Assembly: GCA_025774555.1 (NCBI GenBank)
Contig: JALGVT010000007.1
Coordinates: 17,327-81,326, forward strand
Direction of reading: 5' to 3'
Source of the DNA: a candidate division LCP-89 bacterium
Lineage (GTDB): Bacteria; Electryoneota; B3-LCP
DNA: 64,000 bases
This document shows positions 22,318 through 53,121 of the stretch, piece by piece. A model generated the notes under the pieces. The model worked only from the letters and a program-made list of their open reading frames with translations, did not search any database and was not told the DNA's origin. Numbering within the stretch: position 1 is the first letter of the stretch; each line of letters begins with the position of its first letter. Position numbers and translations under genes: made by a program.

Positions 22318-24279
22318 TTGACCAGATCGATCATCACAGCGATAATCTGCTTGATTACCCTTTCATACTCTCTGTTCGCCCAAACTATCATCCCCGGCGG
22401 TGAGGTTTATGGCACCTGGACAGCGGATGGTTCTCCCTACCTTATTGAAGGTGAAATAAATGTCCTTGAGATGCATTCGCTCACTATTACACCCGGTGTT
22501 GAAGTCATATTCCAAGGCTTTTATGAGTTCTTTATCGAAGGGATTCTCGATGCGTCAGGCGTTGAAAACGATTCGATCTTGTTCACCGCAGCCGACAGCA
22601 GCGCAGGTTGGGGCGGCATTACCTTCTTGAGTCAGCAGGAAGAAAGTTCACTGACATATTGTATCATACAGCACGGGCGGATGGGCAGCATCACTAATCA
22701 CGGAGGCGGCATTACCTGCAGCTATTCCAGCCCAACGATCAGGCACTGCTCCTTCAGATGGAATCACGTCGGCGCATATGGCGGCGCCATTTACTGCTTC
22801 CACTCCGAGGCAGTCATTTTAAACTGTGTCTTCACACATAACAGCGCAGGACATGGCGGCGGCATTCATAGTTTGAATTCTGATCCAACCATTACTGACT
22901 GTTCTTTCACTGATAATTGGGCTGCTGATTATGGCGGAGGCATTTACTGCTATATCTCCAATGCTGTAATATCGGGATGCACCCTTACCGAAAACAGCGC
23001 AAGTAATGGCGGCGGCATTTTTTGCAGGGCAGGTTCGGACGCAACCATATCAAACTGTGTGATTCGTGGAAATATCGCTATTACGGGTGGAGCCATTCAC
23101 TGCAATCTCTCCAACCCGACTTTTGAGAACTGCCTTATTGAGAACAATATCGCTGAAGAGGGCGGCGGTATTTACTGCTGGGTAGGTTCACAACCGAATA
23201 TATTGAACTGTTCCATTATCGGGAACAGCGCAACACTCAATGGGGGCGCTATCGTCTGTGAAGATTCATCCGGTATCAATGTTATCAACTCTACAATTTG
23301 GGATAATTCATCCCTGCAGATATACCCCGAAAATCTGCGAGTCCAATACTGCGACGTTCAGGAAGGATATGCAGGAAACGGCAATATCAATGCAGATCCC
23401 TTGTTCATTTCAGGACTGGGAGGCGATTACTATTTAAGTCAACTCATTGCCGGTCAAGCTCAGCAGAGCCCCTGCGTGGATGCAGGAAATCCGTCATCGG
23501 CAGTGATCTACGGAACGACGCGCACAGATGGCGTTCAGGATCAGGGGATCGTCGATATGGGTTATCATTATAGCGCATCTGTGACTTATCCTGACATGCA
23601 AATCATCCTCAGTTACCTTTCCGGTTCGCCCGTTCCTGCGGGTGGCGGGAATATCTACTTCGACGTCTATGCTGAAAACGCCGGATTGACGCCGTTGACC
23701 TTCGACGCCTGGCTGGAGATAGCCTATGAGGGTGGGACTCCTACGACGGTAGTGCAGCGGCACTTTGTCAACTATCAGCCGGATTGGGCGATCAACCGTC
23801 CCGGTATCTGGTACCCGGTGCCGGGCAGTTACGCTGCCGGCAACTACACTTTCATTGGCAAAGTGGGCGTTCATCCAGCAGTTGCATGGGATGAGAGCGG
23901 TTTCCCGTTTGTTAAATCCGGAACCGATTACATTGCAGGGTTTATACCGTGGGCACCGGACGGAGTGCCCAATCCGTTTGATAAAATTCAGAAGGGCGAC
24001 GCGCGCGTCGTACCTACGGAGTTGGTGTTGTTGGGAGCGTACCCCAATCCCTTCAATCCGACGACAACTATCAGCTATCAGCTTTCAGCGCTCAGCTTTG
24101 TGAATATGACGGTCTACGATATATCGGGAAGATTTGCTGTAGAGTTAGTCAAAGGCTGGAGAGATGCGGGTATGCATGAGGTGACGTTTGATGCGTCTGA
24201 TTTGGCGTCGGGGATATATATCTACCGCATGGAAGCAGGAGAGTTTGTGGCATCGGGGAAGATGCTGTTACTAAAATAG
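22318..24279 (+). CDS. Secreted right-handed parallel beta-helix repeat protein with pre-CTD module and T9SS C-terminal sorting domain
   Basis: TTG start, signal peptide, >10 NxxxxGGGI(Y/F)C PbH1-like repeats, C-terminal YPNPFNPTTTISYQLS...GKMLLLK. Confidence 0.8.
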   Translation: MTRSIITAIICLITLSYSLFAQTIIPGGEVYGTWTADGSPYLIEGEINVLEMHSLTITPGVEVIFQGFYEFFIEGILDASGVENDSILFTAADSSAGWGGITFLSQQEESSLTYCIIQHGRMGSITNHGGGITCSYSSPTIRHCSFRWNHVGAYGGAIYCFHSEAVILNCVFTHNSAGHGGGIHSLNSDPTITDCSFTDNWAADYGGGIYCYISNAVISGCTLTENSASNGGGIFCRAGSDATISNCVIRGNIAITGGAIHCNLSNPTFENCLIENNIAEEGGGIYCWVGSQPNILNCSIIGNSATLNGGAIVCEDSSGINVINSTIWDNSSLQIYPENLRVQYCDVQEGYAGNGNINADPLFISGLGGDYYLSQLIAGQAQQSPCVDAGNPSSAVIYGTTRTDGVQDQGIVDMGYHYSASVTYPDMQIILSYLSGSPVPAGGGNIYFDVYAENAGLTPLTFDAWLEIAYEGGTPTTVVQRHFVNYQPDWAINRPGIWYPVPGSYAAGNYTFIGKVGVHPAVAWDESGFPFVKSGTDYIAGFIPWAPDGVPNPFDKIQKGDARVVPTELVLLGAYPNPFNPTTTISYQLSALSFVNMTVYDISGRFAVELVKGWRDAGMHEVTFDASDLASGIYIYRMEAGEFVASGKMLLLK

Positions 24280-24422
24280 CAGTTAGCAGTTGGCTGTTAG
24301 CCGTTAGTTTGGGCGATCTTAGGATTGCCCATTTACCTATATAACGTTTGATTTTTATCAGTACGTGCGTTATATTGGGATGAAGTTCATCTACATGAAA
24401 TTTGATAAGGCAGGAGGATAAG

Positions 24423-25559
24423 TTGAATCTGTTAAATATTGGTGTGATTGCTAAATCTCAAAAGGAGAATGAACGGAGAGTTCCCATTCATCCGAATCAA
24501 CTGGAATGGATACCGGAAGAGATTCGCAGGTATCTCACATTCGAATACGGCTACGGAGTGCCATTCGGCGTCAATGATAATAAATTGGCTGGACTGTCCG
24601 GAGGATTGGCTGACAGGGAACAGATACTGAAAGAAGCGGACGTTGTACTGATATCCAAGCCACTAATAAAAGACTTTCAGTCCATCAAACAGAATGGTGT
24701 TCACTGGGGATGGGCGCATGTGGTTCAGCATACGGACCGAGCCCAGGTGGCAATAGATAACAAGCTGACATTGATCACCTGGGAATCGATGAACACATGT
24801 ACTCCTTCAGGCAGGCTGTCACACATCTTTTATAAGAACAACGAAATCGCAGGTTACGCGGGAGTTATGCATGCACTTAGCTTAACCGGATCAGATGGGC
24901 ACTATGGTCCGCGCCGCAAGGCGGTCGTCATCCATTTTGGATCCGTCAGCCACGGCGCCATTCACGCTCTACAGGGCAGGGGAATTCACGATATTTATGT
25001 CTACATAACAAACCCGATTGAAATGATCATAAACCAGGTGCCTGGAGTTTATTACCGACAGATTATAAAGGATGATTTTGACCAACTTCACGTCCAGAAT
25101 GAAGACGGTTCGGAAAAACCCTTGATCGACGATCTTTCTGAGGCTGATATAATCGTCAACGGGATCATGCAGGATACCGACAATCCCCTGATTTTCGTAC
25201 ACGAAAACGAAATTGATCGTTTGAAACCGGGAGCGCTGATTATTGATATCAGTTGCGACGAAGGGATGGGATTCTCGTTTGCCAAACCGACTACGTTCGA
25301 TAACCCAATGTTCATGGTAGAAGACATCCACTATTACGCAGTTGATCATACACCATCGTACCTCTGGAACAGCGCCTCCTGGGAAATATCGAAAAGCCTG
25401 ATTCCCTTTCTACCGACAGTGATGAAGGGACCTGAAGCCTGGGATCAAGACGAGGTGATTCAAAAGGCGATTGAGATACGTTCCGGTGAAGTTAAAAATG
25501 AGAAGATTCTGAACTTCCAGAACAGATCACCTGAATATCCACATCTTGTGATGGGGTAA
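24423..25559 (+). CDS. AlaDH/PNT-family NAD(P)-dependent dehydrogenase (saccharopine dehydrogenase / carboxyethyl-ornithine synthase-like)
   Basis: LNIGVIAKSQKENERRVPIHP N-terminus like alanine dehydrogenase; DISCDEG...NP segment like lysine-forming saccharopine dehydrogenase; start placed at TTG 24423 after AGGAGGA RBS (ORF-track start 24402). Confidence 0.5.
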   Translation: MNLLNIGVIAKSQKENERRVPIHPNQLEWIPEEIRRYLTFEYGYGVPFGVNDNKLAGLSGGLADREQILKEADVVLISKPLIKDFQSIKQNGVHWGWAHVVQHTDRAQVAIDNKLTLITWESMNTCTPSGRLSHIFYKNNEIAGYAGVMHALSLTGSDGHYGPRRKAVVIHFGSVSHGAIHALQGRGIHDIYVYITNPIEMIINQVPGVYYRQIIKDDFDQLHVQNEDGSEKPLIDDLSEADIIVNGIMQDTDNPLIFVHENEIDRLKPGALIIDISCDEGMGFSFAKPTTFDNPMFMVEDIHYYAVDHTPSYLWNSASWEISKSLIPFLPTVMKGPEAWDQDEVIQKAIEIRSGEVKNEKILNFQNRSPEYPHLVMG

Positions 25560-25577: not shown

Positions 25578-27812
25578 ATGCGTCGTTTGATGATAATCTC
25601 CTTGCTTCTGATAGCTATATCCGCTTTTGCCCGTACAATCGACGACACCTACCACATGGGTTCAGCCGTCTTTGCCGGGGATTTCTACGATGTACTGTAC
25701 CACAACGGCTATGTCTGGATCGCCGACGGCGAGCAGGTCTATTCCGGAAACGTGAAGATCATGGACGTTTCCGATCCGGAAAATCCGTTCGTAGCGGCTC
25801 ATATCTCATACACAGACGGCTCTGCATTCCGGTTGGATGCTGAGGGCGATCTATTATTCGTCTCGGTCAAAGGGCACGGGGTGAAAATCTATAACGTCAG
25901 CGCCCCCCTCTTCCCTCTCTTTGTTGGTGAGTACACTGCAACCGAAACAATCAATGACATGGATGTTTTAGGTGATCTGCTCTGCGTCTTGGGCACGCAG
26001 ACGGGTCTTTCTATCCTGAACATCATCAATCTTTCAAATATCCAGACACTTTCACAGACAGCGATTTCAGGCAGCCGTTATTCACTGGCGGTAACCTCGG
26101 ACAGCCTGCTGAGCGTCGCCTCCGGTGCGACGGGACTTCAAATATTTACCATTGCCGATCCCGTCGCGCCGCGTCTTCTGGATACCGTCACCCTGGATCA
26201 GAAGACTTTCCACGACGTGGTCTGCAATGACACACACGCCTACGCCGTTTACCGCCGAACCATGATCAACAGCGGCGGATTTGCAGTAATAGACATCTCA
26301 AATCCTCCCAATTTCACTGTTTTAGCACAGCCTATAACCTTTGGGGTCGATCCTTTTCCAGACAACGGCTTATACCTGGCAGGAGATACTCTCTTTTTCG
26401 CTGCTACGCAGGGCGGATTCGGCGTGTGGAATATATCCGAACCTGAAAATCCATCGCGTTACGGCGGCTGGGGAGGAGCGGCTTTACCCGGGATTGTGGC
26501 GCGCTGGTCAACGAGGTGCACTTTCGGTGGAGGTTTTGCCTATAATATCTCCCCTGACCGCCTCCTGACGGATACAAAAAACGAAGCCTGTGTTTTCGAC
26601 CTATCCGACTTGACCGATCCACACCCTATCGGATTCTACGACGTTACAGACTGGGTAAAAGACGCGGTGGGATCAGGTGATTATGCCTATGTTGCTTCCG
26701 GCTCGGATGGTTTGCTGGTCGTAGATATTTCAGACCTGGAGAATCCGGTCATCGTTGGAGGCGAGGAACAGCACTTTATCAACTTGTCAGGCAGTAGTGT
26801 CCTGTATGAAAACGGTTACGCCTATGTCAGCGGCGGGTGGGTCGCCCTGAAGATATTCGATGTCATAAACCCTGAAAATCCCACTGTAGTCTCGACAGTC
26901 AATGAAGGTTGGGCATCCTACCGTGATATGGATAAACAGGATAGCCTGATTGCCGTTGTGGGGACGGGAATATCACCATCGCCGCCCGGCTGGTTAAGCA
27001 TCATTAACGTTACGGATGTTGCCAGCCCCCAGTGGATGGGGTATATCAATCTCGACGTCGGCGTTCACGGTATCGACCTAGTTGACACACTGGCTTTTAT
27101 TGGATACGCCGACGGTTTAGGAGTGTTGGATATCAGCATCCCGAATAATCCGGTATTGATAAGCTCGTATGATACCGGCGAAGGCGGGCAAGATGTGGTG
27201 GTAAGGGATAATATCGCTTTCGTGGCAGATCAATCCAACGGTCTGGTAATTCTGGACGTCAGCGATCCTTTCGATCCCCGTCCGATTTCATCACTGGACA
27301 CGCCCGGCTGGGCGATGGAATTCGAATTGGTCGGTGACTCTATATATGTAGCCGATTCAACAGCGCTGGTAATCATAGATGTATCAGATCTGCAAAACCC
27401 GGCAGTTGCCGATATTGTTCCGGTGCTGGGTTTCGCCCAAGGAATATCCGTTGATGATGGCCGCATATTCCTCTGTGATAATTACGGCTTTCACATCTAT
27501 ACACACGAATGGCTGGGTATAGCAGAGACAGGCGGAATATCTCAAATGCCAGTTGCATTTAATGTAAATTGTCATCCCAATCCCTTCAATCCGATCACAG
27601 CTATCAGCTTTCAGCTTTCAGCGGTCGGCTATGTGAATCTGGCGGTTTACGATGCTCAGGGGAGGCAGGTTGCTGAACTTATCAACGGCTGGCGGAATGC
27701 GGGTGTGCATGAAGTCACCTTCGATGCCTCGAATCTGGCGTCAGGTTTATATATCTACCGCTTGCAGGCAGATGACTTCACTGCCACCGGCAAGATGGTG
27801 CTGATGAAATAA
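25578..27812 (+). CDS. Secreted LVIVD-repeat beta-propeller protein with T9SS C-terminal sorting domain
   Basis: RBS aaggagg; signal peptide; repeated LVVVDISDLENP / LVILDVSDPFDP / LVIIDVSDLQNP LVIVD motifs; C-terminal HPNPFNPITAISFQLS...GKMVLMK. Confidence 0.8.
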   Translation: MRRLMIISLLLIAISAFARTIDDTYHMGSAVFAGDFYDVLYHNGYVWIADGEQVYSGNVKIMDVSDPENPFVAAHISYTDGSAFRLDAEGDLLFVSVKGHGVKIYNVSAPLFPLFVGEYTATETINDMDVLGDLLCVLGTQTGLSILNIINLSNIQTLSQTAISGSRYSLAVTSDSLLSVASGATGLQIFTIADPVAPRLLDTVTLDQKTFHDVVCNDTHAYAVYRRTMINSGGFAVIDISNPPNFTVLAQPITFGVDPFPDNGLYLAGDTLFFAATQGGFGVWNISEPENPSRYGGWGGAALPGIVARWSTRCTFGGGFAYNISPDRLLTDTKNEACVFDLSDLTDPHPIGFYDVTDWVKDAVGSGDYAYVASGSDGLLVVDISDLENPVIVGGEEQHFINLSGSSVLYENGYAYVSGGWVALKIFDVINPENPTVVSTVNEGWASYRDMDKQDSLIAVVGTGISPSPPGWLSIINVTDVASPQWMGYINLDVGVHGIDLVDTLAFIGYADGLGVLDISIPNNPVLISSYDTGEGGQDVVVRDNIAFVADQSNGLVILDVSDPFDPRPISSLDTPGWAMEFELVGDSIYVADSTALVIIDVSDLQNPAVADIVPVLGFAQGISVDDGRIFLCDNYGFHIYTHEWLGIAETGGISQMPVAFNVNCHPNPFNPITAISFQLSAVGYVNLAVYDAQGRQVAELINGWRNAGVHEVTFDASNLASGLYIYRLQADDFTATGKMVLMK

Positions 27813-27830: not shown

Positions 27831-29492
27831 ATGCGTAACACCGTCATTTCCATTCTCATACTGGGCGTGTTGACCGTTACGGGTAACTCCCAGACTATCG
27901 TCCCCGGTGGACCTGTGTCCGGGACCTGGACACAGGCGGGATCGCCCTACTTGATCGAAGGGGAAATTACCATCCCCGATGGAGAGACATTGAACGTAGC
28001 TCCTGCTGTGGAAGTCATTTTTCAGGGGCATCATAAGTTCATCGTTAATGGATACCTGGAAGCCACCGGGACAGCAGAGGATTCGATTATATTCACAGCA
28101 GCAGATACGAGCGAAGGCTGGCACGGCATTCGGTTCAACCATGCTCCTGATAGCAGCCACTTAATATTCTGCATCGTTCAATATGGTTATGCCACAGGGA
28201 GTGATCCTGAAGATTGGGGTGGTGGAATCCATATCTATAACTCAAATCCAGTCATTAGCCACTGCTTAATTGAGAGGAATTCGGCTGTGGTTGGCGGCGG
28301 GATTTGCTGCTGGTATTCCAATCCCACCATCGAAAACTGCATTATCAGCGAGAACACGGCTACGGGCGTCGGCGCCGTAGCTGGCGGTATTTATGGTTGG
28401 GAATCCAACCCAACCATCAATCAGTGTGTCATCACCGGGAATTTCGGCGGGGGAATCTACTCCTATGAGTCTGCTAACCCAATCATCAGTCAATGCACTA
28501 TTACCTGGAACGCCGGAGGGATTTATTGCAATGACTCTAGCCCAACCATTTCAAACTGCACGATTATTGGGAATTCGGCTAGTGATGCCGGAGGCGGGAT
28601 CACCTGTGCCTGGGGTTGCAACTCGATCATTTCTAACTGCATTATCAGCGGGAATTCGTCCATAAATGTTGGCGGCGGAATCGGCTGCTGGGATTCTGCC
28701 CCGACCATCGAAAACTGCACCATCAGTGGGAATTCAACTGGTATAGGTGGCGGTGGAATTTACTGCGAGCATGAACACGGCCCGACGATTGTGAATGTAA
28801 TTGTAGAAGGTAACATTGGAAATGGAGGCATTTACTTCAATGATTCCCCAAATGTGACTATCACCTACGGGGATTTTTACAACAACGAAGGGAGTAGTTT
28901 TATAGGAAATACCATACCTGCATATTTAGGTGAAATCGTAGCCATTAACACCAACGGCGATTCGTGTGACATTTTCTTCAATATCTACGAGGATCCATTG
29001 TTCGTTAACGAACCCTTAAGCGACTATCATCTCTCACCGGACTCTCCCTGTATAGACGCCGGGAATCCTTTTGTGCAATACAACGACCCGGAAGACCCTC
29101 TAACCCCCGGATATGCCCTCTGGCCAGCACAGGGAACGATCCTGAATGATATGGGAAACTCTGGAGGGCCTGGAGCAAGGGATTGGGTCGTAGGAATCAA
29201 GAAGAACCCCAGCTCGAGATCTGTGCCTTCTATTTTTAATTTACAGCAAAACTACCCCAATCCCTTTAATCCCTCGACGGTTCTCAGTTATCAGCTGTCA
29301 GTGGTCAGCAATGTTACCCTGTCGGTTTACGATGTGTCGGGGCGGAAGGTGGCCGAACTGGTGGATGGCTGGAGGGATGCGGGGCAATACGAGGTTACTT
29401 TCGATGCTTCCCACCTCCCTTCAGGTATCTATTTCGCTCGGCTGACGGCTGGAGATTTCACCTCTACTGGCAAGATGATTCTTATGAAATAA
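27831..29492 (+). CDS. Secreted parallel beta-helix repeat protein with T9SS C-terminal sorting domain
   Basis: paralogous N-terminus to 22318 gene (IVPGGPVSGTWTQAGSPYLIEGEI), GGGI(Y/C)C repeats, CTD YPNPFNPSTVLSYQLS...GKMILMK. Confidence 0.8.
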   Translation: MRNTVISILILGVLTVTGNSQTIVPGGPVSGTWTQAGSPYLIEGEITIPDGETLNVAPAVEVIFQGHHKFIVNGYLEATGTAEDSIIFTAADTSEGWHGIRFNHAPDSSHLIFCIVQYGYATGSDPEDWGGGIHIYNSNPVISHCLIERNSAVVGGGICCWYSNPTIENCIISENTATGVGAVAGGIYGWESNPTINQCVITGNFGGGIYSYESANPIISQCTITWNAGGIYCNDSSPTISNCTIIGNSASDAGGGITCAWGCNSIISNCIISGNSSINVGGGIGCWDSAPTIENCTISGNSTGIGGGGIYCEHEHGPTIVNVIVEGNIGNGGIYFNDSPNVTITYGDFYNNEGSSFIGNTIPAYLGEIVAINTNGDSCDIFFNIYEDPLFVNEPLSDYHLSPDSPCIDAGNPFVQYNDPEDPLTPGYALWPAQGTILNDMGNSGGPGARDWVVGIKKNPSSRSVPSIFNLQQNYPNPFNPSTVLSYQLSVVSNVTLSVYDVSGRKVAELVDGWRDAGQYEVTFDASHLPSGIYFARLTAGDFTSTGKMILMK

Positions 29493-29504: not shown

Positions 29505-29563
29505 TGTCATTCCGGGCGACGAACCGGGATCCGGTAGGGGCAACGCGTGCGTTGTCCTTTTTT
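29505..29563 (+). terminator. 3' element: tgtcattcc motif + GTAGGGGCAACGCGTGCGTTGTCC hairpin + T6
   Basis: same architecture as 1787..1851. Confidence 0.55.
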
Positions 29564-42774: not shown

Positions 42775-42854
42775 ATTCACCCAAGCCCCACCATTTCCTT
42801 GCTTTCAGCAATCCAATTCTCTGTTAATATAATTTCCTACTGCATTGTTACCTT

Positions 42855-43973
42855 TTATTTCCTCACCCAGTTCCTGAATTTCTGATAGCTGATGCTTGCG
42901 GTCAAATCAAAGCGGAGTTCATCGATAAAATCGACGTCGCTGCCGGGTTCATATTCGCGGACTACGTTCAGTCTTGCCCATTCGGGTCCAAGACCAATTC
43001 CGGTATATATGAACGAACGGTGCGCCTTATGATCTACTGACCAGCCAACGCGTCCACTAAACAGACAGTACAGATTCGCCTCAAAACCGAGGCGTGAGGT
43101 CCAGCCACCTTCATGGTCGCCTCCGCCCCATGCTTGAAAGAGCGCATCCGTGGCTTTGTTGTATCCACCGAGAGGATGATCCGGGTCGTCGCTCTTCTTG
43201 CGTGATACGAGTAGCTTCTGCAGTTGTGCGGCAACTCTGAAATCCCAGATTCGCCCCTCATAGACGCCCCATAAAATATCGCTGCGGAAGGTCTGGGGCA
43301 GCATTTCATAATCAGGCGAGTAATCATATTCAATTCTGCCGCCTAAGTTCTGAAATGCCAATCCAACGGCAATACCTCTCGAGAATGGTCTGCCGAATCT
43401 GAAACGTGGATCCCGCTTCCTGATTTCCGGTTTGCCTATCGTGATTTGTGGGAAAAGATTGCTGTAGACCGCTCCAAAATCAAAAGCCATCTTGTAGGAT
43501 TTTGACCAGGATTCGTTCAAAGGTGTAAACCCAGCCTTGCTGGTGGTGAGAATTTTAAAAGCCAACCCGAGTGACAGATCCACCCTCCTGGATGGTTTTC
43601 CCGCGATAATTAAAGCTGAACCTTCCTCATCAGGATAATCTGTTCCCTCGATACCCTGCCGGAAGTAATAGCTAAAGCCCAGGTATCCGAATTCGCTGTG
43701 CGCGCCGAAGATCACGTTGAAGTAATCGTAATTGGGACCTGAATGTGGATGCGGATTCAGATATGCCGATCCATTTAAATCAGCCGTCAATGCCTGAGCA
43801 GCGGGATTATACAGTCCGCCTGATGCATCTCCCAGCAGCGTTCCGCAGCCTCCCATACCGAGCGATCTCGCACCAGTTTCAAGCACAAGAATCTTCCCGG
43901 CGGTGTTAATGTCATACGACCAGGCTGGCAGGGAAAGCAATATACTGAATAGAATGACGAGGGGCTTTTTCAT
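42855..43973 (-). CDS. Outer-membrane beta-barrel protein, PorV(LptO)/FadL-like
   Basis: signal peptide; ETGARSLGMGGCGTLLGDASGGLYNPAA resembles the conserved N-terminal motif of PorV/FadL-type barrels; aromatic C-terminus ...FRNWVRK. Confidence 0.4.
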   Translation of the reverse strand: MKKPLVILFSILLSLPAWSYDINTAGKILVLETGARSLGMGGCGTLLGDASGGLYNPAAQALTADLNGSAYLNPHPHSGPNYDYFNVIFGAHSEFGYLGFSYYFRQGIEGTDYPDEEGSALIIAGKPSRRVDLSLGLAFKILTTSKAGFTPLNESWSKSYKMAFDFGAVYSNLFPQITIGKPEIRKRDPRFRFGRPFSRGIAVGLAFQNLGGRIEYDYSPDYEMLPQTFRSDILWGVYEGRIWDFRVAAQLQKLLVSRKKSDDPDHPLGGYNKATDALFQAWGGGDHEGGWTSRLGFEANLYCLFSGRVGWSVDHKAHRSFIYTGIGLGPEWARLNVVREYEPGSDVDFIDELRFDLTASISYQKFRNWVRK

Positions 43974-44776
43974 CAGGAAATATCCCTCTGCGCAGGACCG
44001 TCATATTCAAACGGAGGCGGTCCCAATTTTCGCATGGTTTTTTCACGAGTCCATTCTTCGATGACATGAGCGATCAAACCGGGAACGCGGCTGATGATGA
44101 AGAAGCCTTTGCCCAAGCGCCAGTCGAATCCCATCTCGCTGATGACCGCGGCAATAGCGCCGTCCACGTTCAGCGGAAGGTCTCTGCCGGAGGTACGTTC
44201 CAGCTCGTCCTGAACGGCTACAGCCAATTCGATGATCCTGCCCTTATATCCGATTCTTTCAGCGATTTCCAGCATCTTGACGGTGCGAGGATCCCGCTTA
44301 TGGATGCGGTGACCGTAACCGGGCATACGGATTTTCTTTTCCTTTAAATCGGCGACAAGCTGCACCGCCAGTTCTTCAGGCGTCCCCTCCTTTTGCACCC
44401 ATTCCTGTAGGATTTTCGCGCATTTTTCAATGGCTCCGCCGTGTGAATCGCCGATAGTCAGTACTCCGGCTGCGACGGCTGCGTTCAGGGAATTGCCTCC
44501 CGAGAAAACGGTGCGCGCGGCGAGATTCGAGGGCGGCGTGGGACCGTGATCGATCGATGAGACGAGCATCGCTTCTATCATTCTGCGCTGCTGGTTATCA
44601 GGAAGTTCGCCCTTGAGAATCAGATATATTACGTCGGAGAATGACAGATGCTCCATGATGTCGGCGATATCGTAGCCGCGCACTCGTATCTGACCGCCGC
44701 CGATATCGGTTATGGCAGTTTTCCAGGTTGGTTCTGACATGATTTCCTCTCTGAAATCCGTTAATTCCAGTTCCAA
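43973..44776 (-). CDS. Citrate synthase family short-form protein (citryl-CoA lyase-like)
   Basis: 267 aa; GYGHRIHK signature of the citrate synthase active site, homologous to the C-terminal domain of citrate synthase/ATP-citrate lyase. Confidence 0.55.
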   Translation of the reverse strand: MELELTDFREEIMSEPTWKTAITDIGGGQIRVRGYDIADIMEHLSFSDVIYLILKGELPDNQQRRMIEAMLVSSIDHGPTPPSNLAARTVFSGGNSLNAAVAAGVLTIGDSHGGAIEKCAKILQEWVQKEGTPEELAVQLVADLKEKKIRMPGYGHRIHKRDPRTVKMLEIAERIGYKGRIIELAVAVQDELERTSGRDLPLNVDGAIAAVISEMGFDWRLGKGFFIISRVPGLIAHVIEEWTREKTMRKLGPPPFEYDGPAQRDIS

Positions 44777-44967: not shown

Positions 44968-45068
44968 GAATCCAACCTACAAAAGCTGGATCACGGAAAA
45001 ACTCGGATTATTCGGATTGCGCGGATGAATGTTACGTGGTGGTAGGGGCGAGGTTACCTCGCCCCTAC
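44968..45068 (+). repeat. 101-bp direct repeat copy 1 (ends with P1 REP 45042..45068)
   Basis: ~95% identical to 47234..47334; flanks the 45262..47160 gene. Confidence 0.7.
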
Positions 45069-45149
45069 CATTACTACATGGAAAATGGTGATCGTAAGCG
45101 CGCACAGCATGCCGAATTCCAGATATCGGTCTATGGCAAAATATTGCGC

Positions 45150-45261: not shown

Positions 45262-47160
45262 ATGCAGAGACAACTCTACCTACTACTACTAATTCTTCTA
45301 ATCATTCCAACGCTCCTGATTGCTGCTCCAGCGAATGTAAGACCAATGTATCCCCTGCCGCCTATCTTCACCGGGCTTGAGGATGTGCCGGATAACATTC
45401 CAGTCGTTCATCCGCCCTATAATCTATCTGATATCGATGGTATCGACATATTGGGTGATACCGTCACAGTGGGCGACACCTGGTATGAATACCAGCATAA
45501 CGCTACGATCGGCAGACAGATCAGGTTAAGCGATGACGGTTACATTCACATGGTCTGGACCAAAGGTGAAGATGAACCATCCAACAACCGGCATATCTAT
45601 TACAACTACATCGATCCATCAGGTCAACAGGGTTGGCAAGGCAGTGGATATGCCGTAGAATCTTCACAACGCGGTGGTTTTACCAGCCTTGCAGTAGGCT
45701 GGGATGGCATCGCATTCCCGGCTTTTCACCAGGTTACAGGAACGAATGCTCACACAGCGGTCGCCACTGACTTCTTCCCCCATGCGGGAGCGTTCCTAGT
45801 TTATGAAATACCTTGGTACAACGGGCAAGACCTGGAATATATCTGGCCCAGAATTACGATGAAAACGGATGGTGAAATACTCGTCACCAGCGTAGGCAAC
45901 TCCGATCCCACGGGCGCTTCAGGCATGACCTGGTCAATGGGAACCTATGATCCTCTGACATACAGCATAAGTTATACTCCACAGATATTATGCGGACCTT
46001 TTACCCATATTTCTAATGAAGTCGGGGCATCGCGAGTGTCCAACCGAGTCGGTAGCGCTTACTGCGCACCGCTTGAAAACGACGTAGGTGGATGGGATGT
46101 CCACGCGATGATTGACAACGATGGTCTGGACTTGAATTTCGATAACTACTGGAACGTTACGAAGTTCATGGAGCCTGATCTCGCCTGGCTGCCGGATACT
46201 CTTATGGCTAATGCGGACACACTTCGAGCCTACTGTGACGTTTCCATGTTTTACGACATGGATGACTACTGCCACATCGCTTTCACAACCTGCCGCTGGT
46301 TTGAACTGGAAGGCGGTCTGGTTTATTGGAACGCTTCGCTGATCTGGCACTGGTCGGAACGCTGGCCCAACGATTATCATGTCATCGCAAACGCCTTTGA
46401 CCCAGATAGTTTTGTCGATTGCGGCGGTTGGAATTTCCGTGGTCAACGCCCGTCCCTTGGTCAGGATCCTGAAACCGGTTACCTCTATTGTATGTACCAG
46501 GAATTCGACGTCGATTCAACTGCGATTTCTCTGGGCGGTTGGCCCTCAGGCGAGGTTAAAATATCGGTTTCGACCGATAACGGCGCGACCTGGTCAGTGG
46601 GAACGAACATCACCAATACGGTTACACCAGAAAATGCTCCCCCAGGAGAATGCCTCTCTGAAGCGTATCCCTCTATGGCGGAAGTAGTTGACGGCAACTG
46701 TCATGTCCTGTATGTTCTCGACTTAGATGCAGGCGCATTCCTTCAGACTGAAGGAACCATTACACTTAATCCCATCATCTACCACAAAGTGCCGGTCGAT
46801 CTCATTCCGACGTCGCCGACAGTGGAGAACCTGACATTCCACGTGGCGCATACCGGACCGGTAGTATCGACAGAGCCGGAAGATGAAGCAAAACTAACGA
46901 AGTTTGCGCTACAGCAGAACAATCCCAATCCTTTCAATCCGAACACGACGATACAGTTTTCGCTGGAAACCATAAGCGATATCCGTCTATCGGTGTACAA
47001 TCTGAGGGGTGAGCTGATATCCACACTCGCTGATGGAGCTTTTTCAGCCGGGATACACACCATCGCTTTCGACGGCAGCCGTCTCTCTTCAGGCTTGTAC
47101 GTTTACCGTCTTGAAACGGAAGGCAAATGTCTCCAGAAGAAGATGCTGTTACTAAAGTAG
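45262..47160 (+). CDS. Secreted BNR-repeat protein with T9SS C-terminal sorting domain
   Basis: RBS gaggtg; signal peptide MQRQLYLLLLILLIIPTLLIAAPA; SVSTDNGATWSVG BNR motif; CTD NPNPFNPNTTIQFSLE...KKMLLLK (ORF-track start 45193 is upstream, in-frame). Confidence 0.65.
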   Translation: MQRQLYLLLLILLIIPTLLIAAPANVRPMYPLPPIFTGLEDVPDNIPVVHPPYNLSDIDGIDILGDTVTVGDTWYEYQHNATIGRQIRLSDDGYIHMVWTKGEDEPSNNRHIYYNYIDPSGQQGWQGSGYAVESSQRGGFTSLAVGWDGIAFPAFHQVTGTNAHTAVATDFFPHAGAFLVYEIPWYNGQDLEYIWPRITMKTDGEILVTSVGNSDPTGASGMTWSMGTYDPLTYSISYTPQILCGPFTHISNEVGASRVSNRVGSAYCAPLENDVGGWDVHAMIDNDGLDLNFDNYWNVTKFMEPDLAWLPDTLMANADTLRAYCDVSMFYDMDDYCHIAFTTCRWFELEGGLVYWNASLIWHWSERWPNDYHVIANAFDPDSFVDCGGWNFRGQRPSLGQDPETGYLYCMYQEFDVDSTAISLGGWPSGEVKISVSTDNGATWSVGTNITNTVTPENAPPGECLSEAYPSMAEVVDGNCHVLYVLDLDAGAFLQTEGTITLNPIIYHKVPVDLIPTSPTVENLTFHVAHTGPVVSTEPEDEAKLTKFALQQNNPNPFNPNTTIQFSLETISDIRLSVYNLRGELISTLADGAFSAGIHTIAFDGSRLSSGLYVYRLETEGKCLQKKMLLLK

Positions 47161-47233: not shown

Positions 47234-47334
47234 GAATCCTACCTACAAAAGCTGGATCACGGATAAGATCGGATTATTCGGATTGCGCGGATGAATGTTG
47301 CGTGGTGGTAGGGGCGAGGTTACCTCGCCCCTAC
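47234..47334 (+). repeat. 101-bp direct repeat copy 2 (ends with P1 REP 47308..47334, followed by CTAC-rich tail)
   Basis: see copy 1. Confidence 0.7.
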
Positions 47335-47410
47335 CCCTACCACTACCATTACCACTGAGGATGGCTGCGCCACACAGGAATTAATCCTCTTACTGAGTGA
47401 CTTAAACGTT

Positions 47411-47769: not shown

Positions 47770-48777
47770 ATGCAGGTGAGAGATAACGAAACCCAACTAC
47801 TCTATGGATTATTCCAGGGGATATGTACCTGGGCCATGGAAAAAGGGTACAAAGACATCTCGGGGATGAAGAACCTCCTGAAACTGGCGATGGTTGACAC
47901 CTGCCGACAGAAGCATGCCGACAAGTCATCTTTTGCGACGCAGATGGCAATCGTCACCGATCTGGGCATTTCACTGCGAAACGTCCAGTACACGCTGAAA
48001 AGGCTGGAAGATCTGAAAGATATTTCCAGCGATTACGTCAAAATCCGCGAGATACAGAAGGAGATAACGGTCACTCTGCTGCGCGCGCCGCAAACGGATG
48101 AAGAGATCCTTGCTGAAGTTTCCTATCTCATCCATGCACCCCACGATCTGCAGAAACGGACTCTGCGAACAATCCTGACCGATATGGTGCAAAAGGGTGT
48201 TATCACCGCTGAAGTTGAAGATGGCATAACATCTTACAAAACGGAAAAATCACATGTCGACCTTTTCGACATGACCGATCTTTCCGCCCGAGTATCCGGG
48301 CTGCTCACGCACATTGACGTATTCAACCACACTGTGGGAAAACCAGTCTATAAAACCTTCCAGCTTGAAGAAGATCAGGCGAGGGGACTGCAGACTGCCA
48401 TCAACGAGTTTCTACGGGGCACAGGTAACGCTTTAGAACATGAATGCCGCGAGGCGAAAGAGGTGACCAAGCCCTATTATTTCTATCTGGGGAGCGCGCC
48501 GGTACCGGAAATGGAGCATCCACCGCCTTTGCCAGACGCAATACTGAAAGTAGTCCAGGCGCGTTTTGCTGATCCGGAATCAGCCTCGTTGCTGAGAAAT
48601 CACTGGTACCAGTTGACTCCGGCGAGCGCTAAAGCTGTCTTCAATGAAGTCAGCAGTTTCCTCAAGAGAGAGGGGGTATCTGCCATGAACAATGGAAATG
48701 CCGCGAAGAATGACCCGTTCGTTTTCTATTTTGGCATGGCGGATCGTCAATTAATGAAATCAGAAGAGGAGATATAA
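47770..48777 (+). CDS. Hypothetical cytoplasmic protein with N-terminal winged-HTH-like segment
   Basis: 335 aa; FATQMAIVTDLGISLRNVQYTLKRLEDL resembles a wHTH recognition helix; no recognisable catalytic motifs. Confidence 0.35.
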   Translation: MQVRDNETQLLYGLFQGICTWAMEKGYKDISGMKNLLKLAMVDTCRQKHADKSSFATQMAIVTDLGISLRNVQYTLKRLEDLKDISSDYVKIREIQKEITVTLLRAPQTDEEILAEVSYLIHAPHDLQKRTLRTILTDMVQKGVITAEVEDGITSYKTEKSHVDLFDMTDLSARVSGLLTHIDVFNHTVGKPVYKTFQLEEDQARGLQTAINEFLRGTGNALEHECREAKEVTKPYYFYLGSAPVPEMEHPPPLPDAILKVVQARFADPESASLLRNHWYQLTPASAKAVFNEVSSFLKREGVSAMNNGNAAKNDPFVFYFGMADRQLMKSEEEI

Positions 48778-49405: not shown

Positions 49406-51151
49406 ATGGTAATAAAGATATACGGTTTTTGTATGCGCGTATCAGCCCTCCTGATATTCGTTCTTACGGTTAGCTCTCCTTTATCCGCCCAGGTCATCGA
49501 AGAATGGGTTATAAGAGAAAACGGACGCGGCAACGGTCCGGATTATGCGAAGGATATAGTTATCGATCAAGATGGCAACATTATTGTTACCGGCTATTGC
49601 GATCGTTCGCTTCATCCTGATTGGGTTGACTATGATTTTGCCACAGCAAAATATGACAATTCCGGCAATACTATCTGGATTGCGCGTTATCCCGGTCTCG
49701 TTGACGAAAACGATAAAGCTTACGCGTTAGCCCTGGATGAAGCGGGCAACGTCTATGTGACCGGCGCTGGCAGCGGTCACGCTGATGATTACACTACGAT
49801 CAAATATAACTCCGATGGAGTTCAACAGTGGATGGCGCAATATACGAGTCCAGGCAATTACTATGATAAACCTAATGCGATAGCTGTGGACTCTGAAGGC
49901 AACGTCTACGTTACGGGATACAGTAACACGAGATCGTTCTATAATCACGATTACACCACTATTAAGTACAACTCCTCGGGTCAAGAGCAGTGGATAGCAA
50001 TTTATGATGGCACTGGCGGTGAAGATGATGAAGCGAAAGCAATTGTAGTTGACACAGACGGAAACGTCTACGTTACAGGTGATTGTTATGACGAGCATTT
50101 TTCCAACTACTGCATGACCATCAAGTATGATCCCGGGGGCAACAGAGTCTGGACAGCAGCTTACCATTTCCAGTTTGCCAACATAGGCTATGCCATAGCT
50201 GAAGATATGGTGCTGGACAACGCGGGCAACGTCTATATTGCCGGCTATCACGGTGATGAACGAGACTCCGAATTCCTCGTCGTGAAGTATGATTCGTTCG
50301 GCGTGGAACAGTGGGCTGAGCATATAAGTGCCAGCGGGGGCAGTTATGATTACTGTCATGCCATGACGATCGACGCTGACGCCAATCTGTACGTCACTGG
50401 TGAAGGATTCTGCAGTACCACAGATTATGTTACTATCAAACTTGATTCCGATGGAAATGTGGAGTGGATATCGTCATACGACGGGAACTGGGGTGGAGAT
50501 GATAGCGCGAACGATATAGTGGTAGATGCTGAAGGTAATGTCTACGTTACGGGAGAAAGTGAGATAGGGGCATATACTTACGAGTACGCTACTGTGAAGT
50601 ACGATCCCAACGGAGATGAAGAATGGGTTATGATTTATCCGGACAACTTGCCGGATTTCTATAGCAGCAGAGCCAGCGCTATTGCTATGGATAATGAAGG
50701 CAGCGTCTATGTTACCGGAAATTCCTATGTAGCTGAGACAAATTATGATTTTGCCACTGTAAAATACAGCCAGCCATCAGGGATAAAGGATAAAACCGTT
50801 ATCAGCGCCGAACCGTCGAAATTCAGCATAATCAGCGTTTATCCCAATCCATTCAACCCGGCAACAGTTATCAGCTTCGAGTTGCAAGCTGCAAGTTGGA
50901 TTAGATTGGATGTGTTTGGTATAAACGGGCGGAATGTAGGGACGGTAGGGGCGAGGTTACCTCGCCCCTACACGTCGGGGTCAGGGACGACCCCGACTAC
51001 GGGATTCTATCCCCCCGGCATGAACGCCATTACTTTCGATGGAACGGAGCTGACATCGGGGATATATATTTATCGACTTACTGCCGATAATGTGTCGGGG
51101 TCAGGGGCGACCCCGACTACGGCGAGTGGGAAGATAGTGCTGATTAAATAG
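49406..51151 (+). CDS. Secreted SBBP/beta-propeller repeat protein with T9SS C-terminal sorting domain interrupted in-frame by REP-like palindromes
   Basis: RBS aaggggg; signal peptide; ~8 repeats ...GN(V/I)YVTG...; CTD YPNPFNPATVISFELQ... then inserted VGARLPRPY/TSGSGTTPTT and VSGSGATPTTA segments encoded by P1/P2 palindromes; ends GKIVLIK. Confidence 0.7.
   Translation: MVIKIYGFCMRVSALLIFVLTVSSPLSAQVIEEWVIRENGRGNGPDYAKDIVIDQDGNIIVTGYCDRSLHPDWVDYDFATAKYDNSGNTIWIARYPGLVDENDKAYALALDEAGNVYVTGAGSGHADDYTTIKYNSDGVQQWMAQYTSPGNYYDKPNAIAVDSEGNVYVTGYSNTRSFYNHDYTTIKYNSSGQEQWIAIYDGTGGEDDEAKAIVVDTDGNVYVTGDCYDEHFSNYCMTIKYDPGGNRVWTAAYHFQFANIGYAIAEDMVLDNAGNVYIAGYHGDERDSEFLVVKYDSFGVEQWAEHISASGGSYDYCHAMTIDADANLYVTGEGFCSTTDYVTIKLDSDGNVEWISSYDGNWGGDDSANDIVVDAEGNVYVTGESEIGAYTYEYATVKYDPNGDEEWVMIYPDNLPDFYSSRASAIAMDNEGSVYVTGNSYVAETNYDFATVKYSQPSGIKDKTVISAEPSKFSIISVYPNPFNPATVISFELQAASWIRLDVFGINGRNVGTVGARLPRPYTSGSGTTPTTGFYPPGMNAITFDGTELTSGIYIYRLTADNVSGSGATPTTASGKIVLIK
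50945..50971 (+). repeat. P1 REP-like palindrome GTAGGGGCGAGGTTACCTCGCCCCTAC inside CDS (27 nt = 9 codons)
   Basis: identical to intergenic copies at 45042 and 47308. Confidence 0.8.
50974..51002 (+). repeat. P2 REP-like palindrome GTCGGGGTCAGGGACGACCCCGACTACGG inside CDS
   Basis: second copy inside same CDS at 51094..51122; intergenic variant at 40877..40905. Confidence 0.8.
51094..51122 (+). repeat. P2 REP-like palindrome (second intragenic copy)
   Basis: GTCGGGGTCAGGGGCGACCCCGACTACGG. Confidence 0.8.
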
Positions 51152-51254: not shown

Positions 51255-51303
51255 AGCAGAAGAACCAAACCCGTTAACCAGATGTATCGAGGAGGTTATC
51301 ATA

Positions 51304-53121
51304 ATGCGCAGGTCTGTTCTGATCGTTTCATGTTTCAGTCTATTACTAATCGCTGCTTACAGTGAGGCACAGCCGCAAATCAGCGGACAGTTGAACGGCA
51401 CACTGCGAGCAGGGACGTACATTGTCGTTGGCGATATCGAAGTGGGGGTTACAGATTCATTAATTGTCGAGCCCGGCGTAACCTGTCTCTTCGACAGTAT
51501 TTTCAGCATCCGCATTTATGGATATCTGTACGCGGTCGGCACAGAGACTGACAGCATCATATTTCGTCCCAATGACGGAGTGGAAAGTTTCAACAGCATC
51601 ATCTTCCAGGACGGATCGTCTAACAACAGCGAACTTGGATACACATTCATAACCGGCGCCGCGGGAAGCGCCATCAACGCGTACTATGTCAACGTAACAA
51701 TTTCGCATTGCACGATTTCCGCAAACAGAGCCAACTGGGGCGGCGGGATATACTTTTCAAGCTCTAACGGCGTCATCTCTGATTGTGTCGTCACCGACAA
51801 TACCGCCATCCACAACGGTGGGGGCATTTACTGCACTCACTCCTCGCCAACCATTGAAAACTGCATTGTGCTGCAAAACTATTCCAATTATACTGGCGGT
51901 AACGGCAGCGGCAGGGGAGGCGGAGGTATATGCGCAAATCACGTTTCCAGTCCTTCTATAACGAACTGTATCGTTGATGATAACGTCACTGAGGCGAACG
52001 GCGGCGGCATTGCCGTTAATGACAATTCCAACGTGACTATTCTGAACTGCACGATGAACAACAACAGCGCCGACAGCAGCGGTGGGGGTCTTTACATCAG
52101 CGCCAACTGTACGCCTGTCGTCCGCAACTGTGAAATGCACTCCAATTCCACCGAGATGAACGGCGGGGGAATCTGCCTTGAAACCAACGTTCCGGCGATC
52201 ATTGATAGCTGCACCGTTCATTCGAACACAGCGGCTTGGAATGGCGGAGGGGTCGCTCTCCTGTACACCGATCCAGAAATCAGCCGCTGCGAAATTTATG
52301 ACAATGAGGCAACTCACGGCGGCGGTTTATATTCATTTAAAAATGATTCAACCGAGATCATCCACTGCACTTTCAGCGGTAACGACGCGTTGCAGCAGGG
52401 CGGCGGAGTAGAACTGGATAGCAGCAAGGTGCAGATCAGTAACACAATCGTCGAAGGAAGCACCGGCAATGGCGGAATACACTTTTCTGACTCGGACACG
52501 TCAACGGTGGCATACTGTGATTTCCACGATAATTTAAATGGTGATTTCACAGGAACGCCGCCGGCAAATTTAGGTATTATAACGACTGTCAATGCCAACG
52601 GCGATACCTGCGATGATTTCTTTAACATCTTCCTCGATCCGCTCTTCGTCGACCCCGTAAGCGGGGATTTCAATCTGCAGGAGAACTCGCCGTGCATTGA
52701 TGCGGGTGACCCGGAAAGTCCACAAGATCCTGACGGTACTGTTGCGGATATTGGTGTTCATTATTATGAGATCACCAGCATTCGAGATCAGCAGGAATCT
52801 CATCTGCCTGCGATGATTTCTGTATCAAATTACCCCAATCCCTTCAATCCCACCACCACCATCCGCTTTGATCTGCCGGTTGCCAGCCAGGTCAGGTTGG
52901 AGGTGTTTGATATTAATGGGCGGAATGTTACCAGCAGCCAGCCACCAGCAACCAGCAACTCTTACCCCCCCGGCAAGCAAGCCATCACCTTCGATGGATC
53001 GGGGCTGGCATCGGGAATATACATTTATCGACTTACTGCTGATAAATTGTCGGGGTCAGGGGCACCACAGGCGGAACCGACCACGACTACGGCGAGTGGC
53101 AAGATGGTGCTGATTAAATAG
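51304..53121 (+). CDS. Secreted parallel beta-helix repeat protein with T9SS C-terminal sorting domain carrying degenerate in-frame REP insert
   Basis: start at ATG 51304 after ggagg RBS (ORF-track start 51226); ISGQLNGTLRAGTYIVVGDI N-terminus paralogous to 33194 gene; GGGI(Y/C) repeats; CTD with low-complexity insert TSSQPPATSNS and expanded P2 at 53049..53092. Confidence 0.75.
   Translation: MRRSVLIVSCFSLLLIAAYSEAQPQISGQLNGTLRAGTYIVVGDIEVGVTDSLIVEPGVTCLFDSIFSIRIYGYLYAVGTETDSIIFRPNDGVESFNSIIFQDGSSNNSELGYTFITGAAGSAINAYYVNVTISHCTISANRANWGGGIYFSSSNGVISDCVVTDNTAIHNGGGIYCTHSSPTIENCIVLQNYSNYTGGNGSGRGGGGICANHVSSPSITNCIVDDNVTEANGGGIAVNDNSNVTILNCTMNNNSADSSGGGLYISANCTPVVRNCEMHSNSTEMNGGGICLETNVPAIIDSCTVHSNTAAWNGGGVALLYTDPEISRCEIYDNEATHGGGLYSFKNDSTEIIHCTFSGNDALQQGGGVELDSSKVQISNTIVEGSTGNGGIHFSDSDTSTVAYCDFHDNLNGDFTGTPPANLGIITTVNANGDTCDDFFNIFLDPLFVDPVSGDFNLQENSPCIDAGDPESPQDPDGTVADIGVHYYEITSIRDQQESHLPAMISVSNYPNPFNPTTTIRFDLPVASQVRLEVFDINGRNVTSSQPPATSNSYPPGKQAITFDGSGLASGIYIYRLTADKLSGSGAPQAEPTTTTASGKMVLIK
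53049..53092 (+). repeat. Expanded/degenerate P2 element inside CDS
   Basis: gtcggggtcaggggcaccacaggcggaaccgaccacgactacgg; homologous to intergenic 6623..6661. Confidence 0.6.

Follow-up and report, generated by a model that had tools for sequence, protein, structure and literature searches.

The stretch of DNA analysed here, the 64,000 nucleotides of contig JALGVT010000007.1 (assembly GCA_025774555.1, candidate division LCP-89) that we call the window, carries a dense array of genes whose products end in the C-terminal domain (CTD) of type IX secretion system (T9SS) cargo; the genes are named by their start positions. They are set among conserved housekeeping genes and accompanied by repetitive extragenic palindromes (REPs), some of which lie in-frame within the CTD. 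Pfam and NCBIfam scans of the translated open reading frames (ORFs) with hidden Markov models (HMMs) found a type A T9SS CTD at the end of 11 ORFs (starting at 70, 22318, 25578, 27831, 29877, 33898, 36006, 37685, 45193, 49406, and 51226), in agreement with the eleven genes with a Por secretion CTD reported in a first-pass annotation of this DNA. The CTDs of 10 of the 11 genes passed both curated cut-offs, with 32–40 bits for PF18962 (cut-off 27) and 31–48 bits for TIGR04183 (cut-off 23). Scores below threshold, which the annotation had named as evidence that would count against it, were found in the SBBP gene alone (ORF 49406; PF18962 22.1 and TIGR04183 20.9 bits), because REPs are inserted in-frame in its CTD. 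When the last 125 residues were aligned, the motifs PNPFNP, GxYxYRL, and GKMVLxK were common to all 11 proteins, with the domain running up to the stop codon, and each protein starts with positive charges and then a hydrophobic, signal-like stretch. From sequence, the layout of the cargo appears to be a Sec signal peptide, a variable head, and a type A T9SS CTD.

The heads are as heterogeneous as had been proposed: the LVIVD, SBBP, and Kelch-like heads were supported by HMM matches, and so were heads of the Beta_helix, NosD, and Chlam_PMP families (Table 1). Four of the six beta-helix proteins originally listed were recovered by HMM (22318, 27831, 37685, and 51304, the last as ORF 51226); for 36006 the HMMs gave only NosD at E 0.004, and 33194, taken for an ordinary beta-helix cargo gene, proved to be a single gene (33194–35778) interrupted twice, by a frameshift or short deletion near 33690 and by a TGA lying in-frame at 33814–33816, which leaves three ORFs. 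The break reflects either pseudogenisation or a misassembly, and with this gene the array consists of 10 intact genes and 1 broken gene; selenocysteine at the TGA was rejected because the gene also has the frameshift or deletion near 33690. The peptidase head described as C25-like matches Peptidase_C13, not C25, and the head described as BNR is weak, having one Asp-box and a sub-threshold BNR_4 match. The C-terminal stalk of the 29877 protein, 590 aa long, is 59% identical to that of a C25-peptidase CTD protein in a related contig (L118, 3412–7536), whereas the heads differ, being of C13 type in the former and C25 with a propeptide in the latter; the pair looks like a clear case of head replacement on a common stalk and CTD.

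Two side observations concern the cargo genes. By eye, a Gln stands straight after the likely signal-peptide cleavage site in 5 of the 11 proteins (22318, 27831, 33194, 49433, and 51304, reading AQTI, SQTI, TQNI, AQVI, and AQPQ), which recalls the Bacteroidetes "Q-rule", reported as not valid across the whole Fibrobacteres–Chlorobi–Bacteroidetes (FCB) group (PMC5837995). The AlaDH/PNT-like gene 24402 appears to come first in an operon with cargo genes 25578 and 27831 (18-nt spacers, GGAGG), an odd association of a cytoplasmic enzyme with secreted proteins.

The outer-membrane protein (OMP) encoded at 42855 had been described as a PorV/FadL-like barrel. Its AlphaFold2 model, with a predicted local distance difference test score (pLDDT) of 78 and a predicted template modelling score (pTM) of 0.78, shows 14 long strands, and its top Foldseek matches were Flavobacterium johnsoniae PorV (8gl6_F, E 2e-15; 6h3i_F, E 2e-12), with template modelling (TM) scores of 0.69–0.74, as against E ~2e-6 and TM ~0.45 for FadL-family barrels. 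A profile built from 27 of its homologues matched PorV 6h3i_F at E 6e-7. We found 33 homologues at 43–65% identity, including those of candidate division LCP-89 B3_LCP and a Zixibacteria metagenome-assembled genome (MAG). The barrel resembles PorV in its modelled fold, and it may act as a cargo shuttle. As a separate observation, the overlap of the OMP and citryl-CoA lyase genes, with an aconitase-family large subunit nearby, was present in every relative examined (L115, L116, L118, L120, L124, and L125); the two metabolic proteins are 78–91% identical in relatives and the OMP only 46–65%, and the coupling of an outer-membrane barrel to them is puzzling.

Repeat finding combined with a hairpin scan revealed a 27-nt palindrome, GTAGGGGCGAGGTTACCTCGCCCCTAC (REP-A), at five positions, and a second family, GTCGGGGTC-N6-GACCCCGAC-TAC (REP-B), GTAG-tagged on the other strand, with copies at 50974 and 51094, degenerate copies at 37466 and 53049, and a related copy at 40877. 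The scan for GTAG-tagged hairpins returned 19 hits at 13 loci, against 1.4 ± 1.05 in 30 dinucleotide shuffles, and every hit in the window lay in or beside a cargo gene. Outside genes, 9 GTAG loci fell in the ~4.4 kb of cargo-flanking intergenic DNA versus 0 in ~4 kb of other intergenic DNA, and the segments 2.1–22.3 kb and 53.2–64 kb had none despite a similar amount of intergenic DNA. The extragenic REPs lie 28–150 nt past cargo stop codons, where the 3′ regions carry two or three strong hairpins each, with z-scores of −4 to −6.5 in five of the six regions, and four end in U-runs. In five cargo genes the sequence TGTCATYCYGG starts a hairpin 10–14 nt past the stop codon (1787, 29505, 32820, 37535, and 40843); it has 8 matches in the window versus 0.76 expected and forms, with the GTAG REP that follows, a common 3′ module of cargo genes. 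Such hairpins after stop codons would probably serve as terminators or 3′ stabilisers of the transcripts.

Other repeats were seen in the same kind of DNA. The element CCCCTTTCTTTTTCAAGGGGAGATTAAGGGGG lies downstream of two cargo genes (1857–1888 and 35826–35857, 84% identical; repeat D14), and a further palindromic family, TCAGGTC...GACCTGA with an inner CCGTC..GACGG, has copies at 32968–33016, 47416–47516, and 58787–58835, one of which matches positions 3196–3286 of the LCP-89 locus L115 at 80% identity.

Inside cargo genes, all REPs are in-frame, as read directly from the DNA, and occupy the linker before the CTD or the CTD itself (Table 1). The inserts in the beta6-beta7 loops of 49433, 51304, and 36006 read SGSG..PT. 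In the AlphaFold2 model of the CTD of the SBBP protein, the seven strands are kept, the REP-coded residues 45–59 have pLDDT < 50, and the second insert forms the beta6-beta7 hairpin loop; the pre-CTD linker and two loops of the CTD may accommodate the in-frame REPs as disordered loop insertions. REP-A also stands behind these NGRN codons, read in the frame of the window gene, in another MAG (L017 and L043) and in JGI metagenome contigs (L121–L123), and is 27/27 identical between the window gene and those genes, whereas the 120-nt flanks are only 51–72% identical. At the position of REP-A, CTDs of LCP-89 and other relatives carry the palindrome-encoded peptides VGFGESDL, VGARHAS, and VGVGLAPT, and the last (protein P0038) is the translation of a REP that flanks a Y1 transposase in L115.

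Table 1. Genes, palindromes, and other features of the window (positions in window numbering; bit scores are given against their cut-offs).
Feature	Position	Strand	Evidence or remarks
Kelch beta-propeller cargo + type A CTD	70..1773	+	Kelch families; PF18962 37.2 bits, TIGR04183 39.0 bits
GTAG REP in pre-CTD linker, gene 70	1488-1511		Encodes GRGDLAPT
GTAG REP + T-run	1822..1846	+	49 nt after stop of gene 70
ECF sigma (21363-21947) + zinc-finger-type anti-sigma (20863-21366)	20863..21947	-	TIGR02937 107.6 vs 42.9 bits; anti-sigma (ZAS-type) models E 7e-9
Beta-helix / PMP-repeat (Chlam_PMP/NosD) cargo + CTD	22318..24279	+	HMM
Degenerate REP in pre-CTD linker, gene 22318	23994-24017		Encodes KGDARVVPTE
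AlaDH/PNT-family dehydrogenase-like, non-cargo	24402..25559	+	HMM
LVIVD beta-propeller cargo + CTD	25578..27812	+	HMM
Right-handed beta-helix (Beta_helix) cargo + CTD	27831..29492	+	HMM
GTAG REP + T-run, terminator-like	29534..29557	+	42 nt after stop of gene 27831
Clan CD peptidase (Pfam Peptidase_C13) cargo + CTD	29877..32810	+	HMM
REP in pre-CTD linker, gene 29877	32524-32548		Encodes KGDARVAPTE
Disrupted beta-helix CTD gene	33194..35778	+	Frame change and in-frame TGA; N-terminal fragment 59% identical to Beta_helix protein in L115
CTD cargo, head without HMM family	36006..37523	+	NosD at E 0.004 only
Degenerate REP-B, beta6-beta7 CTD loop, gene 36006	37466-37492		Encodes SGSGVIPT
REP-A-like palindrome	37563..37589	.	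40 nt after stop of gene 36006
Beta-helix cargo + CTD, 1048 aa	37685..40831	+	HMM
Facing GTAG REP pair after gene 37685	40877..40932	.	Second (40910-40932) followed by T-run, terminator-like
Aconitase / isopropylmalate-isomerase large-subunit family, backbone	40960..42201	-	78-83% aa identity in relatives
REP-associated tyrosine transposase (RAYT), backbone	42217..42780	-	NF047646 84.5 vs 80; PF01797 Y1_Tnp 38.5 vs 23
PorV/PorQ-family-like 14-strand outer-membrane barrel, backbone	42855..43973	-	AlphaFold2, Foldseek, profile; gene start overlaps citryl-CoA lyase stop
Citryl-CoA lyase-like, backbone	43973..44776	-	82-91% aa identity in relatives
REP-A palindrome	45040..45070	.	Upstream of 45262; inside 113-nt repeat D7, duplicated at 47231-47343
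CTD cargo, weak BNR-like head	45262..47160 (ORF opens 45193; signal-peptide Met 45262)	+	One Asp-box + sub-threshold BNR_4
REP-A palindrome	47307..47335	.	Downstream of 45262, upstream of 47770
Winged-helix-like (wHTH-like) conserved protein, 335 aa, non-cargo backbone	47770..48777	+	Near lyase-OMP pair in relatives
SBBP beta-propeller cargo + CTD	49433..51151 (ORF opens 49406)	+	HMM
REP-A + REP-B in CTD of SBBP gene 49433	50945-50971 + 50974-51000		Replace strand beta4; encode VGARLPRPYTSGSGTTPT
Second REP-B, beta6-beta7 CTD loop, SBBP gene 49433	51094-51120		In-frame
Beta-helix cargo + CTD	51304..53121 (ORF opens 51226)	+	HMM
Degenerate REP-B, beta6-beta7 CTD loop, gene 51304	53049-53090		
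REP-A palindrome	53148..53176	.	28 nt after stop of gene 51304, between convergent genes
DUF748/AsmA-like envelope protein, 1093 aa, backbone; bounds right-hand cargo slot	53199..56480	-	HMM, BLASTP

The RAYT announced in the first pass is present, scoring above the NF047646 cut-off, and is flanked by inverted GTGG-tagged hairpins (REP-C; 42244–42263 and 42736–42755) of the form GGCAGACA-N4-TGTCTGCC with outer arms GGTGGGGC / GCCCCACC. These two copies are the only REP-C in the window; the dispersed REPs (A, B, and others) are GTAG types other than REP-C, and the window encodes no RAYT for them. In L115, a RAYT remnant syntenic with the window RAYT lies between inverted REP-B copies, one identical to the window copy and one differing from it by 1 base, and REPs directly 3′ of CTD genes were also found in L115, L120, L070, L041, and L092. 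The exact 27-nt REP-A palindrome, GTAGGGGCGAGGTWACCTCGCCCCTAC, occurs in at least 114 stretches of GTDB genomes (L001–L114), with flanks that are unrelated between loci. The phyla among the matches listed are Poribacteria, Chloroflexota/Anaerolineae, Zixibacteria, Acetothermia, Planctomycetota, Latescibacterota, and Calditrichota, and the same matches include a MAG of the candidate phyla radiation lineage Uhrbacteria, a Phormidium cyanobacterium, Nitrospiria, and Thermodesulfobacteriota. Since REPs are usually lineage-specific, an identical REP-A across phyla is unexpected.

Contigs of relatives, taken via homologues of the OMP and of ORF 47770 and compared by tblastn and BLASTP, share with the window a common backbone (ABC ATPase, ABC_tran_2, PurL, DUF748/AsmA-like, the 335-aa wHTH-like protein, citryl-CoA lyase, OMP, and aconitase-family large subunit) that is syntenic in LCP-89, Zixibacteria, and further relatives. 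Cargo genes occupy slots of this backbone, and the content of the slots varies across lineages from zero to seven cargo genes: the slot between lyase and wHTH holds two in L125 and one in the window, that between wHTH and DUF748 one in L125 and two in the window, and beyond aconitase there are two in L120 and seven in the window. In L116 the gap between DUF748 and lyase is 56 bp, with 0 CTD genes in 21 kb, and in the zixibacterial locus L124 the order is OMP, lyase, PDDEXK protein, wHTH, DUF748, PurL, and ABC, uninterrupted by cargo. For gene 45262, the corresponding slot of L125 holds orthologues that match over the full length at 52–58% identity; the other cargo genes match relatives through their tails only. 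Because slot content varies and heads are swapped on shared C-terminal stalks, the array appears to have grown by local gain, duplication, and head or domain shuffling at fixed slots, and not by import of a mobile island. The term "tandem" does not suit such an array, as eight non-cargo genes (among them 24402, 40960, 42217, 42855, 43973, 47770, and the small ORF 48780) are interleaved within 22318–53121, and the PorV-like OMP and the RAYT, said to punctuate an island, both belong to the backbone, where they stand with lyase and aconitase even where no cargo is nearby (L116 and L124). The proposal of a non-Bacteroidetes FCB lineage fared better: the nearest named homologues are in candidate division LCP-89 and Zixibacteria, and the sigma-70-like promoters and GGAGG sites fit it.

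Regarding the non-cargo ORFs, members of the 47770 family have a weak winged-helix match, are 44–71% identical in LCP-89, Zixibacteria, and other relatives (P0109–P0144), and are usually encoded a few genes from the lyase-OMP pair; there are two paralogues in LCP-89, the protein appears in some JGI records as a PadR- or HxlR-type regulator, and PHROGs gave no match for ORF 47770. L125 also has a small gene where the window has the small ORF 48780–49103, but no similarity between the two could be detected.

We consider it likely, on these grounds, that the region is ordinary chromosome of an uncultivated FCB-superphylum bacterium in which cargo genes fill slots of a conserved housekeeping backbone, the CTD cargo is exported by Sec and the T9SS, and REPs have colonised the cargo genes. 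The cargo proteins would be exported by Sec, their CTDs would then be recognised by the T9SS translocon, a barrel of the PorV family, perhaps the window OMP, would take the proteins over, and removal of the CTD would be followed by their release or surface attachment. Several points weigh against this reading. The Pfam and NCBIfam scans found no SprA/Sov, PorK/L/M/N, or PorU in the window and, for that reason, we infer T9SS secretion from the CTD and the PorV-like protein. The signal peptides of the 11 cargo proteins are a visual judgement. As to the barrel, the PorV-like fold in its earlier description stood, but the curated family scores did not bear it out: the match to the NCBIfam PorV/PorQ model NF033709 (E 1.8e-16) reached 60.7 bits for a cut-off of 90, that to the PorV equivalog NF033710 28.7 of 250 bits, and no Pfam family matched at E <= 0.01. 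In many Bacteroidota genomes, porV is paired with porU; here porU is not adjacent to the OMP gene, whose neighbours in the window and in seven related loci are citryl-CoA lyase and either RAYT or aconitase. With regard to the REPs, a metagenome scan for the exact NGRN::REP-A junction gave just 3 contigs, all with the same gene as L043, so that the in-frame case is rare and not widespread in that collection; the REP-bearing CTD subfamily could stem from one ancestral insertion kept uniform by gene conversion, and REPs may lie beside cargo genes simply because these genes are transcribed separately and have space to either side.

The shortfall of the barrel and the lack of a core gene in the 64 kb also speak for another reading of the CTDs, as Ig-like modules (FlgD_ig or Por_Secre_tail-like) that serve some other route of anchoring or export in a lineage without T9SS, and so do the sub-threshold FlgD_ig matches that overlap the CTDs and several reviews in which the T9SS is still termed Bacteroidota-specific. 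Nevertheless, we regard such a role as unlikely: 10 genes clear the cut-offs of both TIGR04183 and PF18962, the domain invariably closes the protein and has the canonical K/R-rich strand as its last, and PorV in the T9SS translocon is the best structural match of the OMP by a wide margin. In addition, one review places the T9SS in the FCB superphylum, and BLAST evidence of T9SS has been reported for Chlorobi, Fibrobacteres, and Ignavibacteriae. Foldseek with the CTD model returned generic Ig-like sandwiches alone (E > 0.001) and was uninformative.

The in-frame palindromes raise the question of whether genes 49433, 51304, and 36006 are decaying pseudogenes in which REPs mark inactivation, as could be thought from the sub-threshold CTD of the SBBP gene and from the clearly broken cargo gene of the same array. 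This seems quite improbable, as the three ORFs are intact from the putative signal peptide to the terminal KxVLxK with their inserts in-frame, the model keeps the seven-strand sandwich, the CTDs of 51226 and 36006 are still above cut-offs, and the REP-A-bearing CTDs of L017 and L121 belong to intact ORFs of 708 aa and 747 aa. A mobilisation of the CTD as a cassette by flanking REPs was considered for gene 70, whose CTD is bracketed by inverted REPs (1488 and 1822), and rejected: by repeat finding, the CTD DNA copies of the window are only 62–79% identical, which gives no sign of recent cassette mobilisation. A more daring proposal would be that RAYT-mobilised GTAG REPs land or persist preferentially at four positions of the CTD module (pre-CTD linker, beta3-beta5 segment, beta6-beta7 loop, and 10–50 nt past the stop), remodelling the secretion signal repeatedly in LCP-89-like bacteria, and perhaps aiding the exchange of CTD modules between cargo genes; we put this forward as a doubtful, though conceivable, extension.

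The extracytoplasmic function (ECF) sigma and anti-sigma pair, whose identity was supported by HMM, lies divergent to 22318 as described; its genes overlap by 4 nt and 370 bp of intergenic DNA separate it from this first cargo gene, and the cargo genes might for this reason be taken as its regulon. The sequences upstream of them make this very unlikely. The best matches before cargo genes are of the TTGACA-N17-TATAnT type; the ECF-type motif GAAC-N15-18-CGT precedes neither the sigma gene nor any cargo gene, and there is no ECF gene near cargo in L115–L125, so that the link rests on adjacency. Matches of at least 10/12 to TTGACA-N16-18-TATAAT precede cargo genes 22318, 33194, 36006, 45262, and 51304 and the non-cargo gene 47770, with a weaker CTGACA match 300 nt upstream of 49433; the statement that most cargo genes have a TTGACA/TATAnT promoter of their own holds, at this stringency, for 5 of the 11. 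The totals of promoter matches were modestly above shuffles (31 vs 24.2 ± 4.6; 35 vs 24.1 ± 4.7), and GGAGG ribosome-binding sites stand before most of these genes. As for the extended block said to be shared by three promoters, GCTTGACTTTC, its copies at 45148 and 47691 are perfect and the one at 33039 differs by a single mismatch, and both perfect copies lie inside duplicated intergenic DNA (repeats D7 and D13). Promoters of the sigma-70 type would drive the cargo genes, either one by one or grouped in short operons.

Adjoining the ECF pair is a type IV pilus or type II secretion system (T2SS)-like cluster (6818–20168, minus strand), in which a secretin, an SLBB/Poly_export protein, and a DUF4900 protein are HMM-supported, and PilB-, PilC-, and PilT-like ATPase/platform genes, PilM/N/O-like genes, and pseudopilins were recognised from sequence only. 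The DUF748 protein at 53199 has a weak match to the Leptospira-type GspN model.

Finally, that the 30-kb stretch is a horizontally acquired island of T9SS cargo with the RAYT as mobility gene is extremely improbable and was rejected on composition and synteny, for despite the density of cargo (11 of ~41 genes), the transposase-family gene, and a cargo content that varies between relatives, the GC content is 45–53% throughout the window with no compositional island, there is no integrase or direct-repeat boundary and Rfam gave over the window only a tRNA-Gln at 61557, the cargo is interspersed with housekeeping genes that relatives keep in synteny at 75–91% identity, LCP-89 has its RAYT in the corresponding place, which is what vertical inheritance of a domesticated RAYT would give, and the divergence of the CTD copies denotes no recent en-bloc spread.

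T9SS-type cargo in a non-Bacteroidota FCB lineage makes the window an ordinary region of a known kind, and the placement of its REPs is its one unusual feature. An earlier study (PMC3733652) already described GTAG-tagged REPs that lie downstream of ORFs and are linked to RAYTs, and noted that copies occasionally lie in-frame inside genes; the notable addition here is that REPs flank CTD genes and lie in-frame in the CTD, and no earlier description of a concentration of REPs in a secretion-signal module was found in the literature. Likewise, none of the papers searched ties the T9SS to Zixibacteria, and a dense set of type A CTD cargo with a PorV-like barrel outside Bacteroidota bears on the extent of the T9SS within the FCB superphylum. 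The slots of the backbone indicate that cargo arrays can grow at fixed places without island transfer. Because REP insertions can push a genuine CTD under HMM thresholds, automated counts of cargo would be too low in REP-rich genomes. Should secretion be confirmed, the REP-decorated CTDs would amount to a natural insertion experiment on which CTD loops may tolerate extra sequence, useful for engineering T9SS signals.

Among known systems, the cargo proteins compare best with the type A CTD cargo of Bacteroidota (TIGR04183/PF18962), such as the gingipains of Porphyromonas gingivalis and RemA and ChiA of F. johnsoniae. The layout is alike, with a putative signal peptide at the N-terminus, a head that varies, and an Ig-like domain of ~80 aa at the C-terminus, the motifs PNPFNP, GxYxY, and KxxLxK are present and the HMM cut-offs are passed, and the types of heads (adhesin-like beta-helices, propellers, and clan CD peptidases) are familiar ones. 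In contrast to that cargo, the host is of an LCP-89/Zixibacteria-like lineage with sigma-70-type promoters and GGAGG ribosome-binding sites, and some CTDs have REP-encoded loop insertions; the core machinery known from the Bacteroidota T9SS was not observed in the 64-kb window. PorV of F. johnsoniae (Fjoh_1555; PDB 6H3I and 8GL6, chain F), a FadL-like T9SS shuttle, is a 14-strand barrel of the same size as the window OMP, but identity between them is only 19–20%, and the window gene overlaps citryl-CoA lyase and lacks the pairing with porU.

The palindromes resemble the REPtrons, that is, the GTAG-tagged REP superfamily (Di Nocera et al., 2013, PMC3733652; for REPINs, Bertels and Rainey, 2011, PMC3116915), in being GTAG-tagged palindromes of 24–31 nt, and a RAYT between inverted hairpins exists in the window as well. 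In both cases most REPs come shortly after ORFs that are unidirectional or convergent, and some sit in-frame inside genes (PMC3733652). Unlike in the REPtrons of that study, the intragenic copies of the window lie in one module, the T9SS CTD and its linker, and not in replication or repair genes, and, unlike in described REPtrons, the exact 27-nt REP-A spans genomes of many phyla. A further parallel is offered by the Rickettsia palindromic elements (cited in PMC3733652), in-frame palindromic selfish DNA tolerated as surface peptide segments, as the REPs of the window appear to be; these belong to another element family and another host, and the insertions described here fall within a secretion signal domain.

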